DNA of 64,000 bases from Escherichia phage vB-Eco-KMB23, in sequence record OR525702.1; one strand, 5' to 3'. This document shows, piece by piece, positions 462 through 47,541 of this stretch (the first letter of the stretch is position 1; each line of letters opens with the position of its first letter). The translations under genes and the position numbers were made by a program. The notes below the pieces were generated by a model that saw only the letters and a list, made by a program, of their open reading frames with translations, had not been told where the DNA came from and did not search any database.

Positions 462-2568
462 ATGACTTTATTATCTCCGGGCATTGAGCTCAAAGAAACT
501 ACGGTTCAAAGCACCGTGGTTAATAACTCTACTGGTACAGCAGCTTTGGCCGGTAAATTCCAGTGGGGTCCTGCTTTTCAAATTAAACAGGTTACAAATG
601 AAGTAGATTTAGTTAATACTTTTGGTCAACCTACAGCTGAAACTGCTGACTATTTTATGTCTGCAATGAATTTCTTACAATACGGAAATGATTTGCGAGT
701 TGTGCGTGCTGTCGATAGAGATACCGCTAAAAACTCATCTCCGATTGCCGGTAATATTGAATACACTATTTCTACCCCAGGTAGTAACTACGCGGTTGGA
801 GATAAAATCACTGTTAAGTATGTTTCAGAAGATGTTGAAACAGAAGGTAAAATTACTGAAGTAGATGCTGATGGAAAAATTAAGAAAATTAATATTCCTA
901 CCGCAAAAATTATCGCTAAAGCGAAAGAAGTAGGCGAATATCCAGCATTAGGTTCTAACTGGACTGCGGAAATTTCTTCGTCTTCCTCTGGTTTAGCTGC
1001 AGTAATAACTCTTGGGAAAATTATTACTGATTCTGGTATTTTATTAGCTGAAATTGAAAATGCCGAAGCTGCTATGACAGCTGTTGACTTTCAGGCAAAT
1101 CTCGAAAAATATGGAATTCCAGGAGTAGTAGCTCTTTATCCAGGCGAGTTGGGCGATAAAATCGAAATTGAAATCGTATCTAAAGCTGACTACGCAAAAG
1201 GTGCTTCTGCATTACTCCCAATTTATCCAGGTGGCGGAACACGCGCATCTACTGCCAAAGCAGTGTTTGGATATGGACCACAAACTGATTCACAATACGC
1301 TATTATAGTTCGTCGCAATGATGCTATTGTTCAAAGCGTTGTTCTTTCAACAAAGCGTGGTGAAAAAGATATTTACGATAGTAACATCTATATTGATGAC
1401 TTTTTCGCAAAAGGTGGTTCAGAATATATTTTCGCAACTGCACAAAACTGGCCAGAAGGCTTCTCTGGAATTTTAACTCTGTCTGGTGGATTATCATCAA
1501 ATGCTGAAGTAACAGCAGGAGATTTGATGGAAGCTTGGGACTTCTTTGCTGACCGTGAATCTGTTGATGTTCAGTTGTTTATTGCGGGTTCTTGCGCCGG
1601 CGAATCTTTAGAAACAGCATCTACTGTCCAAAAACACGTCGTTTCAATTGGGGATGCTCGCCAAGATTGCTTAGTACTGTGCTCACCACCGCGTGAAACT
1701 GTAGTTGGAATTCCTGTAACTCGTGCTGTTGATAACTTAGTCAATTGGAGAACTGCAGAAACACGTCGTTTCAATTGGGGATGCTCGCCAAGATTGCTTA
1801 GTACTGTGCTCACCACCGCGTGAAACTGTAGTTGGAATTCCTGTAACTCGTGCTGTTGATAACTTAGTCAATTGGAGAACTGCAGCAGGTTCATACACTG
1901 ATAATAACTTTAATATCAGTTCAACCTACGCAGCAATTGATGGTAACTACAAGTATCAGTATGACAAATATAATGATGTGAATCGTTGGGTTCCATTAGC
2001 AGCTGATATTGCTGGTTTATGCGCGAGAACAGATAACGTTTCTCAGACTTGGATGTCTCCAGCTGGTTATAATCGCGGCCAAATTTTGAACGTTATTAAA
2101 CTTGCTATTGAAACTCGCCAGGCGCAGCGCGATCGTTTATACCAAGAAGCTATCAACCCAGTAACTGGCACAGGTGGTGATGGTTACGTATTGTATGGTG
2201 ATAAAACAGCTACTTCTGTTCCTTCTCCATTTGATCGTATTAACGTTCGTCGTCTGTTTAATATGTTGAAAACGAATATCGGACGTAGTTCAAAATATCG
2301 TTTGTTCGAATTAAACAACGCGTTTACTCGTTCATCGTTCCGCACAGAAACTTCCCAGTACTTGCAGGGAATTAAAGCTCTCGGTGGAATTTATGAATAT
2401 CGTGTAGTTTGCGATACAACAAATAACACTCCGTCAGTAATTGATAGAAATGAGTTTGTTGCAACATTCTACATCCAACCGGCTAGAAGCATTAACTACA
2501 TTACCTTAAACTTCGTAGCAACTGCTACTGGTGCAGATTTCGATGAGTTAACTGGTCTTGCAGGTTAA
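462..2568 (+). pseudogene. 18: tail sheath protein gene, frame broken by a 127-bp tandem duplication (track ORFs 462..1823 and 1978..2568 are its two parts)
   Basis: N-terminus MTLLSPGIELKETTVQ is gp18-like; frame 0 stops at 1821-1823 inside second repeat copy; authentic sequence continues in frame +1; 2107 nt minus 127 = 1980 nt = 659 codons + stop. Confidence 0.85.
1632..1885 (+). repeat. perfect direct tandem duplication, 2 x 127 bp (1632..1758 and 1759..1885)
   Basis: Base-by-base identity at offset 127 across the whole unit; mismatch immediately outside both ends. Confidence 0.95.
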
Positions 2569-7012: not shown

Positions 7013-8578
7013 ATGACTATCAAAACTAAAGCTGAACTTTTGAACAAATGGAAGCCATTACTGGAAGGTGAAGGTTTACCGGAAATTGCTAATAGCAAAC
7101 AAGCGATTATCGCTAAAATCTTTGAAAACCAGGAAAAAGATTTCCAGACAGCTCCAGAATACAAAGACGAAAAAATCGCTCAGGCGTTCGGTTCTTTCTT
7201 AACAGAAGCTGAAATCGGTGGTGACCACGGTTACAACGCTACTAACATCGCTGCTGGTCAGACTTCTGGCGCAGTAACTCAGATTGGCCCAGCTGTTATG
7301 GGTATGGTACGTCGTGCTATTCCTAACCTGATTGCTTTCGATATTTGCGGTGTTCAGCCGATGAACAGCCCGACTGGCCAGGTATTCGCACTGCGTGCAG
7401 TATATGGTAAAGACCCAATCGCTGCTGGTGCTAAAGAAGCATTCCACCCAATGTATGGTCCAGATGCAATGTTCTCTGGTCAGGGTGCTGCTAAGAAATT
7501 CCCAGCTCTGGCTGCTAGTACACAAACCGTTGTGGGTGATATCTATACTCACTTCTTCCAGGAAACTGGTACTGTGTATCTGCAAGCTTCCGCTGTAGTA
7601 ACAATCGATGCTAGTGCTAACGATGCAACTAAACTGGATGCTGAAATTAAGAAACAAATGGAAGCTGGCGTACTGGTAGAAATCGCTGAAGGTATGGCTA
7701 CTTCTATCGCTGAACTTCAGGAAGGTTTCAACGGTTCTACCGATAACCCATGGAATGAAATGGGCTTCCGTATCGATAAACAAGTTATTGAAGCTAAATC
7801 TCGTCAGCTGAAAGCTGCTTACTCTATCGAATTAGCACAAGACCTCCGCGCTGTTCACGGTATGGATGCTGATGCTGAACTGTCTGGTATTCTGGCTACC
7901 GAAATCATGCTGGAAATCAACCGTGAAGTTGTTGATTGGATTAACTACTCAGCTCAGGTTGGTAAATCTGGTATGACCCTGACTCCGGGTTCTAAAGCTG
8001 GTGTATTTGACTTCCAGGATCCGATTGATATTCGTGGTGCTCGCTGGGCGGGTGAATCCTTTAAAGCTCTGTTGTTCCAGATTGACAAAGAAGCAGTTGA
8101 AATTGCTCGTCAGACCGGTCGTGGTGAAGGTAACTTCATTATCGCTTCCCGTAACGTAGTTAACGTTCTGGCTTCAGTTGATACTGGCATTTCTTATGCT
8201 GCACAGGGTCTGGCTACCGGCTTTAACACTGATACTACCAAGTCAGTATTTGCTGGTGTTCTGGGTGGTAAATACCGTGTATATATCGACCAGTATGCTA
8301 AACAGGATTATTTCACTGTAGGTTATAAAGGTCCGAACGAAATGGATGCTGGTATTTACTATGCTCCATATGTAGCTCTGACTCCGCTGCGTGGTTCCGA
8401 TCCGAAGAACTTCCAACCGGTAATGGGATTCAAAACTCGTTACGGTATCGGTATCAACCCATTTGCGGAATCCGCTGCTCAGGCTCCGGCTTCTCGCATC
8501 CAGAGCGGTATGCCTTCTATTCTGAATAGCCTTGGTAAAAACGCTTACTTCCGCCGTGTATATGTTAAAGGTATCTAA
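7013..8578 (+). CDS. 23: major capsid protein
   Basis: 521 aa; MTIKTKAELLNKWKPLLEGEG matches T4 gp23. Confidence 0.95.
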   Translation: MTIKTKAELLNKWKPLLEGEGLPEIANSKQAIIAKIFENQEKDFQTAPEYKDEKIAQAFGSFLTEAEIGGDHGYNATNIAAGQTSGAVTQIGPAVMGMVRRAIPNLIAFDICGVQPMNSPTGQVFALRAVYGKDPIAAGAKEAFHPMYGPDAMFSGQGAAKKFPALAASTQTVVGDIYTHFFQETGTVYLQASAVVTIDASANDATKLDAEIKKQMEAGVLVEIAEGMATSIAELQEGFNGSTDNPWNEMGFRIDKQVIEAKSRQLKAAYSIELAQDLRAVHGMDADAELSGILATEIMLEINREVVDWINYSAQVGKSGMTLTPGSKAGVFDFQDPIDIRGARWAGESFKALLFQIDKEAVEIARQTGRGEGNFIIASRNVVNVLASVDTGISYAAQGLATGFNTDTTKSVFAGVLGGKYRVYIDQYAKQDYFTVGYKGPNEMDAGIYYAPYVALTPLRGSDPKNFQPVMGFKTRYGIGINPFAESAAQAPASRIQSGMPSILNSLGKNAYFRRVYVKGI

Positions 8579-44564: not shown

Positions 44565-44881
44565 AAGTCCTCAACTTGAAAATCGTCTTTAAACAATCGG
44601 TTAACTATATGAGCTATTATATCACCATGACACGGCTTTGGTTTACATGTGCATCCTAGCCTCATTCCACGTAAAGGCTCTAAATGTGCTTTAGTTATTT
44701 CTCCGGATTTAATTCGACGTATAAAATCTTTTTTGAATAATTCAATGGCAGCCTCCCGGCTGCCAGCATCTTTACCGACGTAATTTCCCCAAAATGTACC
44801 GCGGTGAATATTAACATCAAAGTCGGATTTGTATTTATTCACTACCCGGCATAGACGGCCCACGCTGGAATAATTCGTCAT
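44555..44881 (-). CDS. small Cys/His-motif protein (nrdA.1 position)
   Basis: 108 aa; [19 protein letters not shown] motif. Confidence 0.6.
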
Positions 44882-45098
44882 ATTGTTTTTCCGTTAATAC
44901 AGTAATATCATAGTAACAATCGGAAGAAGTTTTAACTGTGGAAATTTTATTATCAAAATACTCACGAGTCATTTTATGAGTATAGTATTTTTTACCATAA
45001 ATGGTAATAGGCTGTTCTGGTCCTGGAACTTCTAACTCGCTTGGGTTAGGAAGTGTAAAAAGAACAACGCCAGAAGTATCTTTAAATCGTAAAATCAT
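44835..45098 (-). CDS. hypothetical protein (nrdA.2 position)
   Basis: 87-aa ORF. Confidence 0.55.
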
Positions 45099-45955
45099 AT
45101 TGCCATTTTCCCTTTAATTGCTGGATGCGATTCATAATTTTCAAGGATAAAATCTTTCGGTTTCATGTATTCAGTTAACCAGTAAAGCTGTGTTTCGGTG
45201 TCACAATTTCCAAACTCTATAGGCCAATCAATTTTAAGTTCACACAGTTCTTTAGGCTCACGACGTAAAATTTCTTTACATTGCGCAGTATGATTCATAT
45301 AGATGTGAGTATTACCACCAGAAAATATCAAATCTCCTGGGATAAGATTACACATCTTAGCCACAATATGCGTCAAGGCAGCGTACGAGGCAATGTTGAA
45401 TGGCAAGCCCAAGAAAACATCTACACTTCTTTGGTACCATTGTAAATCAAGATAACCATTACGCACATTAAACTGATAGAACATATGACAGGGCGGTAAT
45501 GCCATTTGATTGATTTCAGCTGGATTCCATGCTGAAACGATTTGACGTCGATCAGTTGGTAATTTTTTAATACGATCAATAGTTTCAACTAATTGATCCA
45601 CACCACCGAAATCACGCCATTGTTTACCATATATAGGACCAAGTTCACCACTATGATATCCTAGGTCTTTAGCTTGGTTTTCATAATTGTCATCCCAGAT
45701 AGTTTTACCTTGAATAAGACTACCGTGAGTAAGAAGACGTAAATCATTAACATTGGTAGAACCGGAAATAAACCATAAAAGCTCAGCAATGCATGCATTC
45801 CAGGCGAGCTTCTTAGTTGTTACTGCAGGAAAACCTTTAGTTAAATCCCAGCGTAATTTAGTACCGAACAGAGCAATTGTTCCTATGCCTGTTCGGTCAT
45901 CGGTTTCATAGCCATTTTCAAAAATGTCTTTAATTAAATCTTGGTATTGTTTCAT
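45095..45955 (-). CDS. td: thymidylate synthase, uninterrupted
   Basis: 286-aa continuous ORF; no intron. Confidence 0.9.
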
Positions 45956-46000
45956 TTAGTACCTTATATAAATTATAATACATTTTATGAAGCTGAATAA

Positions 46001-46348
46001 TCAATACGGTTTAGCATCAAATTTTCTTTCAATTTCAGGCGTGAAATATAATTCTTTACCGCGTTTGGAAAAGCGACCAATAATATGATAATTATTCTCA
46101 TCAAACGTGATATTACCAATATCCATAGCTTTCAACCAAATATCGATATTTCTATCCAGCTTTATGTCAAAATTCCAATACGGAGAACTATTACCGAAAA
46201 TACTGCAAGCGGATTCAGTAAAACAACTACTATAAATCTTATCTTTAGGAACTACTAATTGATAGACACCTTTAATAAACTGAGGACCCTGCCACTTTGG
46301 CTGTTTCGCGTCTTTTTCTAATAGAATAGGGTAATAATTAAAATTCAT
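46001..46348 (-). CDS. hypothetical protein encoded between frd and td
   Basis: 115-aa ORF with ATG start; late-promoter-like TATATAAATG about 25 bp upstream. Confidence 0.6.
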   Translation of the reverse strand: MNFNYYPILLEKDAKQPKWQGPQFIKGVYQLVVPKDKIYSSCFTESACSIFGNSSPYWNFDIKLDRNIDIWLKAMDIGNITFDENNYHIIGRFSKRGKELYFTPEIERKFDAKPY

Positions 46349-46367
46349 ATTTTCCGCCAGTGTTATT

Positions 46368-47197
<830 letters not shown>

Positions 47198-47208: not shown

Positions 47209-47541
47209 TTAAAAAGGATCAGGAACATATCCGCTAGCTTTAATCATTTTAATTAACGTTAACATTCCTTTGTTAACTGCTCGTGAGATTTCATCAAAAA
47301 CTTCATCACTAAAAAGTTCTAACACACCCTTCTGAACTTTTAATTTACAGCCAACAATTTCGTCATCGCCTATAGTAAATTCATTACCACCAATTCCTCC
47401 GAAAAACTTAATTACACCAGTTAACTGTCTTCCACGAGAATATGGGTCGTGTGATAAAGTAATATGAGTCACCCCGGGTACAGTTTTAAATTGGCAGCGA
47501 ATATTTACTTGGGAAATTCCAGTTACATGAATATCAGACAT
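47209..47541 (-). CDS. hypothetical protein
   Basis: 110-aa ORF. Confidence 0.55.
   Translation of the reverse strand: MSDIHVTGISQVNIRCQFKTVPGVTHITLSHDPYSRGRQLTGVIKFFGGIGGNEFTIGDDEIVGCKLKVQKGVLELFSDEVFDEISRAVNKGMLTLIKMIKASGYVPDPF

Follow-up and report, generated by a model that had tools for sequence, protein, structure and literature searches.

The 115-amino-acid ORF between frd and td of Escherichia phage vB-Eco-KMB23 is probably an ancestral T-even accessory gene lost from the T4 lineage

Organization of the frd-td locus

The window analysed here is a stretch of 64,000 nucleotides from Escherichia phage vB-Eco-KMB23 (OR525702.1), in which a small ORF lies between the genes for dihydrofolate reductase and thymidylate synthase. 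In the direction of reading, the locus consists of the following parts:

46368..46952, minus strand: frd, dihydrofolate reductase, the upstream neighbour
46360..46373, minus strand: left copy of a direct repeat, AAATGAAATAACAC, with the core AAATGAA(A), including the frd TGA stop codon (46368-46370)
46349..46367, minus strand: frd-ORF spacer of 19 nt, AATAACACTGGCGGAAAAT, defined from the sequence and the junction comparison
46001..46348, minus strand: the 115-aa ORF, with an ATG start, as given in the ORF list
45956..46000, minus strand: ORF-td spacer of 45 nt, with a sigma-70-like promoter and an AAGG ribosome site for td
45944..45957, minus strand: right copy of the direct repeat, AAATGAAACAATAC, including the td start codon (45953-45955)
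45095..45955, minus strand: td, the thymidylate synthase gene on the downstream side; 286 aa in one uninterrupted frame, without a group I intron

The sequence-only reading of this DNA had described an extra ORF between frd and td, a separation of the two genes by about 410 bp and a td gene without the intron. All three descriptions hold: the ORF is there with its ATG start, 412 bp lie between the frd stop and the td start, and the td frame runs through without interruption. The product of the ORF has a molecular mass of 13.6 kDa and a pI of 8.5. The frd-ORF spacer contains a GGCGGA/GGA Shine-Dalgarno-like element, and the left repeat copy opens with ATG-AAA-TAA, a vestigial td-like start.

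The ORF is a catalogued gene with homologues downstream of frd in several genera

The protein encoded in the window is 100% identical to proteins of T2, RB14 and CrRp10. In RB32 and RB14 the gene goes under the names RB32ORF229c and RB14ORF231 (YP_002854567), the GenBank entry of RB14 naming it RB32ORF229c with the note "flanked by 9 bp repeat", and in T2 it is an unannotated ORF of AY310907. Phage KarlGJung is Bas37, and bas37_0070 is the same gene. The window gene has slot, flanking repeat and protein in common with RB32ORF229c, the T2 ORF and bas37_0070, and the window differs from its T2-type relatives here only by synonymous nucleotide changes and by one base in the length of the frd-ORF spacer. 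A highly significant match to the PHROG 1928 profile (E 8.4e-36) covers residues 4-111 of 115 and, together with the complete identity to the RB14 and T2 proteins, places the product in this family of unknown function. The gene is already known: hundreds of T-even genomes list its product as hypothetical, and it has its own PHROG family.

By tblastn against 50,697 phage records, the protein is present in 580 records. Identity is at least 90% in 362 of these (at least 99% in 265, 95-99% in 83 and 90-95% in 14), including T2, RB14, CrRp10, phiD1 and many Shigella and Yersinia phages; the further 218 records hold diverged homologues with less than 60% identity. Because about 362 records have the ORF and about 700 match the frd-td region overall, roughly half of the Tequatrovirus records carry it. 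IMG/VR added only four loci, all near-identical, and literature searches with the locus tags gave no match.

Diverged homologues with 26-63% identity are located directly downstream of frd in at least five other Tevenvirinae genera, often accompanied by a tandem paralogue. Seven diverged loci were inspected, namely those of Mineola (Jiaodavirus), Cronus (Roskildevirus), STML-198 (Gelderlandvirus) and PEi26 and Entb_45 (both Kanagawavirus), as well as two that are unclassified, Klebsiella phage Biddle_MM4 and a 32-kb metagenomic contig. The homologue follows right after frd and precedes td in all seven, its start overlaps the frd stop in most of the diverged loci, and the frd-ORF-td order is also found in seven other Tequatrovirus-type loci. 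Identities of the ORF product to that of the window (94, 63, 43, 32, 31 and 30%) stand against Td identities of 87, 81, 79, 76, 74 and 75%. The divergence of the ORF broadly parallels that of Td, a pattern that indicates vertical descent of a faster-evolving gene; since the two track each other, we suggest that the gene is ancestral and that T4 represents the derived, deleted state. The sequence-only reading had proposed a lineage-specific insertion and had named in advance, as what would speak against it, the presence of the ORF at the same place in most relatives. This is largely what we find: the protein is identical in T2, RB14 and CrRp10, and the family extends over about 362 records at 90% identity or more and 218 diverged ones.

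In several genera the frd-td slot holds a second small ORF, which is a paralogue of the first (hhalign probability 99.2%, E 2e-19). This paralogue (113-148 aa; e.g. PEi26 ORF-252 and Cronus AWD90399) occurs in Kanagawavirus, Gelderlandvirus, Roskildevirus and related phages. It shares the motifs QKKW, HG-aromatic-Y and GRFxKxGxxI and the operon position with the family found in the window, and its predicted fold in BFVD is similar (Foldseek E 3e-5 to 5e-3), but it has an insertion of 15-30 residues after the first strand that the window family lacks. The paralogue was found neither in the window nor in any Tequatrovirus locus examined.

Two of the loci have a neighbour annotated in pieces next to an intact small ORF: in Entb_45 (1502..2016) frd is annotated as two pseudogene fragments, and in Yersinia phage phiD1 (1994..2855) td is annotated as two CDSs. 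These splits may be frameshifts or sequencing errors.

The substitution pattern is that of a protein-coding gene

The window and T2 differ at 15 nucleotides of the ORF, all 15 in third codon positions and with no amino-acid change. Because pairwise dN/dS among ten Tequatrovirus-type phages is 0-0.07, we judge from the pattern of substitutions that the ORF is a true protein-coding gene under strong purifying selection.

Within Tequatrovirus a single position varies recurrently, residue 14 (codon 46307..46309; A/V/T/E). Diversifying selection may act on this one site, which adjoins K15 and invariant Q16.

Junction anatomy suggests a deletion in the T4 lineage

When the T4 junction is aligned to the window, frd and td overlap at ATGA and the whole 413-bp segment is missing; tblastn of the 115-aa protein against the 12-kb T4 region around the locus gave no match. 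On both counts, the absence of the ORF from T4 and the overlap of frd and td there, the sequence-only reading was right. A phage that bears on this difference is NHEP29 (PQ511150, 1017..2824), which has a compact frd-ORF-td arrangement and a protein 94% identical to that of the window. In NHEP29 the frd stop overlaps the ORF start (GTATATAAATGAATTTT), the ORF stop is separated from td by 15-16 nt (1949-1963; TTAAATGAAACAATA), and AAATGAA occurs again at the td start; its presence at both NHEP29 junctions reflects the use of one stop/start coupling motif at either of them. NHEP29 has neither the upstream spacer of about 20 nt nor the spacer with the td promoter.

The T4 junction reads GTATATAAATGAAACAATAC and has kept only the right repeat copy, joined to the frd end. 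The ATGA overlap of T4 is exactly the sequence expected from a deletion between the AAATGAA(A) repeats at the two junctions. The arrangement in NHEP29 resembles the state before the deletion, and junctions of the T4 and of the T2 type can both be derived from it. In the window and T2-type phages an extra spacer of about 20 nt (AATAACACTGGCGGAAAAT) follows the frd stop, so that a vestigial ATG-AAA-TAA is left behind and the ORF has a weak ribosome site of its own; NHEP29 and other genera do not have this spacer, and in them the stop of frd overlaps the start codon of the ORF. The 14-bp match in the window is partly fortuitous: its two repeat copies agree at 12 of 14 positions, and most relatives share AAATGAA(A) only.

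Combining the distribution of the gene with the anatomy of the junctions, we infer a loss in T4 and not a gain elsewhere: a small deletion between the stop/start coupling repeats would have removed the ORF from the T4 lineage. The textbook overlap of frd and td in T4 would then look like a deletion scar and not like an ancestral design, and the case calls for caution in using T4 as the reference when something is called an insertion.

Promoters and expression

The string TATATAAATG is found at 46369..46378 on the minus strand, and the sequence-only reading had taken it for a near-consensus late promoter of the ORF. The string exists, but it is the end of frd: TATAAATG corresponds to the last frd codons GTA TAT AAA TGA (V-Y-K-stop), and T4 has it just the same, with no ORF behind it. 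Exact TATAAATA boxes occur 20 times in the window, the nearest about 3.5 kb from the ORF. The mark of T4 late genes, TATAAATA shortly upstream, is absent from the ORF, and the proposed late promoter is not supported.

A promoter scan identified, as the only promoter-like element close by, TTGATT-18-TATTAT together with TATAAT in the ORF-td spacer, past the stop codon of the ORF, and in phage Lutter the sole annotated promoter nearby is at the same place past the ORF, serving td. This spacer promoter would serve td, and T4 would have lost it along with the ORF. A candidate MotA box in the same spacer has a spacing that is 2 nt off and is not claimed here.

We suggest that the ORF, lacking a promoter of its own, is probably made from an early/middle message that reads through from frd. 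Its translation would be coupled to that of frd by overlapping stop and start codons in most genera; in the window the 19-nt spacer with its weak ribosome site separates the frd stop from the start of the ORF.

A stretch of 75 bp (45909-45983) shows zero divergence in 12 phages and includes the promoter-like TATTATAAT, the td ribosome site and the first td codons. It takes in 45956-45983, i.e. the ORF-td spacer minus its first 17 nt.

Relation to the td intron and sequence diversity at the locus

In 79 records, a chimeric query made of the ORF, td exon 1 and the T4 intron is matched over its whole length; the td intron is found in about 201 records versus about 362 for the ORF. Given that ORF and intron co-occur in these 79 records, the intron-less td of the window is incidental, and the connection that the sequence-only reading had drawn between the ORF and an intron-less td is not borne out. 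We also considered whether the ORF is absent from some phages through co-conversion by I-TevI, and we reject this on account of the 79 co-occurrences; there is at most a weak negative association, which is confounded by redundant T4 laboratory strains.

When only T2 was compared, an island of high identity seemed to span the ORF plus about 150 bp on each side. The diversity scan covered 13 phages, with divergence figures taken from 12 of them and NHEP29 set aside, and gave a nucleotide divergence of 2-5% for the ORF, equal to the regional background. A low-diversity, recently swept cassette is rejected on this ground, the ORF being at background diversity once the 13 phages are compared.

The protein has a confident predicted fold without annotated relatives

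Searches of Pfam, NCBIfam, PDB sequences and PDB profiles gave no match, in keeping with the statement of the sequence-only reading that the protein has no recognisable motif. When 1.84 billion representative proteins were searched exhaustively by profile, only about 20 clusters were returned, all from phages and 95-116 aa in length; two longer profile matches (P0021 and P0023) are repeat artefacts and were rejected. A broader profile search added only phage proteins of 113-148 aa and found no domain fusion and no functional name. In an alignment of 23 sequences Q16, W19, G27, G91, K95 and G97 are invariant and L9, Y29, N79, F93 and F102 nearly so.

An AlphaFold model from this 23-sequence alignment has a pLDDT of 92 and a pTM of 0.84, with the order b-b-b-b-b-helix-b-b-b; it replaces an earlier run with 4 sequences (pLDDT 61.5), which was set aside. 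It shows a small beta-barrel whose single helix is placed between main strands three and four. BFVD contains only uncharacterised family members and paralogues as matches, and structural matches in general are weak and mostly to OB folds. OB domains such as S1, RPA/SSB, HIN and telomere-end-binding domains likewise form small beta-barrels in which the strand order is the same and a helix separates strands 3 and 4. Further OB-like traits are the basic character of the protein, with a family pI mostly of 8-9, and the location of invariant aromatic and basic residues in the loop that follows strand 1 and around the hairpin of strands 4 and 5. A possible binding of single-stranded nucleic acid or oligosaccharide on the strand 2-3 / L12 / L45 face would have indirect support in the basic pI and in the invariant W, K and F residues of these elements. 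The protein is possibly a divergent OB fold, and on the basis of the model we suggest a small basic beta-barrel with one helix and OB-like strand order. There is no conserved set of acidic or histidine catalytic residues. The protein would most likely act by binding, either to a nucleic acid or to a phage or host protein, and not as an enzyme or nuclease. As a piece of T-even dark matter with a confident model and without structural relatives, it is a reasonable, not an urgent, target for structural work and for the identification of binding partners.

The gene is dispensable in the hosts screened

In Extended Data Table 7 of a HIDEN-SEQ transposon study, bas37_0070 has insertions at 34 of its 36 sites on K-12 and is classed as 'Non-essential' (bioRxiv 10.1101/2025.11.20.689424). 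The tabulated log2FC values relative to K-12 are 0.40 for CFT073, 0.18 for CFE299 and -0.09 and 0.16 for two further hosts, with an adjusted P of 1 in all four of these comparisons, out of six Bas37 host comparisons (bioRxiv 10.1101/2025.11.20.689424). In these data the gene is dispensable in Bas37 on E. coli K-12 and in the four host comparisons. Reads per insertion site are given as about 372 for the ORF, about 117 for frd and about 30 for td (bioRxiv 10.1101/2025.11.20.689424). The better tolerance of insertions in the ORF is compatible with td having its own promoter or with read-out from the transposon.

Origin and possible role of the gene

In total, the identity, distribution and junction data make it probable that the ORF is an ordinary, catalogued T-even accessory gene, the RB32ORF229c orthologue within PHROG 1928, which occupies its ancestral position immediately after frd. 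Two alternatives concern the nature of the ORF itself. A chance open reading frame in a non-coding spacer might be suspected from the lack of any domain match and from the T2 record AY310907 (2003), which leaves the ORF unannotated; yet all 15 differences between the window and T2 are synonymous and dN/dS is at most 0.07, homologues at 26-63% identity retain length and motifs, and the family alignment yields a confident fold (pLDDT 92). This explanation, already refuted by the substitution pattern, is scarcely conceivable.

The other alternative is that the gene is a free-standing homing endonuclease or selfish cassette that was inserted between frd and td with duplication of the target. Presence/absence polymorphism between conserved genes with a short direct repeat on either side would fit, WilhelmHis, KarlGJung and some other records, among them those of the BASEL collection, label the gene 'putative homing endonuclease', and in T4 the region houses I-TevI in td and mobE near nrdA. 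The segA-G and mobA-E genes of T4 are likewise small genes that are present or absent between conserved T-even genes. In contrast to these, the ORF lacks both a nuclease domain and conserved catalytic residues, and it is ancestral, syntenic and at background diversity. None of the features by which a homing endonuclease would be recognized was found, i.e. a domain, catalytic residues or an incongruent distribution with co-conversion tracts: no family member contains a GIY-YIG, HNH, LAGLIDADG, His-Cys box, PD-(D/E)xK or other nuclease domain (no nuclease family at E<=1 among 23 members, and for the protein itself no Pfam match at E<=10 and none in NCBIfam), no Asp, Glu or His is invariant in 23-29 aligned sequences, and diversity at the 2-5% background shows no sweep-like trough with co-conversion tracts. 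At 115 aa the protein is also shorter than T4 mobE (141 aa), and the Seg and Mob endonucleases are larger than this in general. All seven diverged loci have the gene just after frd with a divergence that tracks Td, arguing for vertical descent, and the flanking repeat is the AAATGA stop/start coupling motif common to the gene junctions and not a footprint of transposition. The BASEL label seems to come from comparative genomics, the methods citing presence/absence and no domain match. We regard a role as homing endonuclease as very unlikely and the insertion of such a cassette as having hardly any probability; the label is unsupported and should not be propagated.

Two further alternatives address what the protein does. 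It could be a counter-defence or host-takeover factor that binds and neutralises an immune or host component of some strains only, which would account for its dispensability and its patchy distribution. In this direction point the restriction of the family to phages, with about 20 clusters among 1.84 billion representative proteins, its fast evolution between genera down to 26-33% identity, the tandem paralogues together with presence and absence within a genus, and the variation of residue 14 (A/V/T/E) on an otherwise frozen sequence. The HIDEN-SEQ screen that covered bas37_0070 also identified other unannotated T-even genes as defence inhibitors, nrdC.1 (Septu) and bas37_0203 (Druantia III) (bioRxiv 10.1101/2025.11.20.689424). 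However, bas37_0070 is not among the anti-defence hits named there (bioRxiv 10.1101/2025.11.20.689424), its disruption caused no fitness change on CFT073, CFE299 and two further hosts relative to K-12 in the tabulated data, and the sequence did not turn up in the supplements to the accessory-gene screen of Silas et al. Moreover, the protein is near-invariant within Tequatrovirus (265 records at 99% or more), unlike a locus in an active arms race. We consider this role conceivable but unlikely, with no support from the hosts tested. Alternatively, the protein could be a partner of Frd and Td, a small subunit, made in fixed ratio with Frd, that binds one or both enzymes or anchors them at the dNTP-synthesising complex or on DNA. 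The placement always directly after frd would agree with this, as would the overlap of its start with the frd stop in NHEP29, Kanagawavirus, Jiaodavirus, Gelderlandvirus and the metagenomic contig, translational coupling being common among interacting proteins. Against it, Frd and Td are fully functional in phages that lack the ORF, namely T4 and about half of Tequatrovirus; the ORF is near-invariant in the genus while frd and td alleles diverge by 10-35% at the nucleotide level, which speaks against tight co-evolution; and in the Bas37 table the reads per site in td (about 30) and frd (about 117) are below the 372 of the ORF. The partnership is a decidedly improbable reading.

For the accessory gene that we favor, the role would probably be a conditional modulation of infection, of host take-over or of nucleotide/DNA metabolism that is dispensable in the hosts tested. 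More speculatively, and with rather low probability, the protein, its family and the tandem paralogues may represent a structurally new small beta-barrel, with no significant match in the PDB, that binds a specific host or phage target and acts conditionally in counter-defence or inter-phage competition, in hosts outside those screened. If this were true, the T4 laboratory lineage would have lost such a capability through gene deletion. As a discovery the gene matters little, since the family is known and the gene is hit in a published transposon screen with no phenotype in the tabulated data.

Variation in the neighbouring genes

The sequence-only reading had also described the neighbourhood as plastic, and in this respect it is supported by two more ORFs directly upstream of frd that are absent from T4. 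An ORF of 81 aa (46952..47197, minus strand) and one of 110 aa (47209..47541, minus strand) lie between frd.1 and frd, where T4 has a gap of 71 nt only, so that the T4-absent genes around frd are three in total. The stop of the 81-aa ORF overlaps the frd start (TAATG). The T2 record AY310907 contains the 81-aa ORF without annotating it, and CrRp10 has both the 81-aa and the 110-aa ORF.

The genes frd and td themselves contain hypervariable islands, at 46575..46790 in frd and 45100..45830 in td, with a mean pairwise divergence of 10-35% versus 2-5% in the flanks and the ORF. These islands sit within Tequatrovirus genomes that are otherwise 95-98% identical, and the divergence in td is worst at 45100..45240, which encodes the Td C-terminus. 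In the comparison with NHEP29, Frd identity is 57% versus 94% for the adjoining ORF. This pattern suggests mosaic allele exchange within frd and td. At the far end of td in the window, the stop codon and the first bases of the nrdA.2 homologue (44835..45098) overlap at 45095..45098, whereas T4 (7215..7236 of the T4 region) and T2 have a gap of about 20 nt between td and nrdA.2; this difference in the junction coincides with the divergent Td C-terminus.
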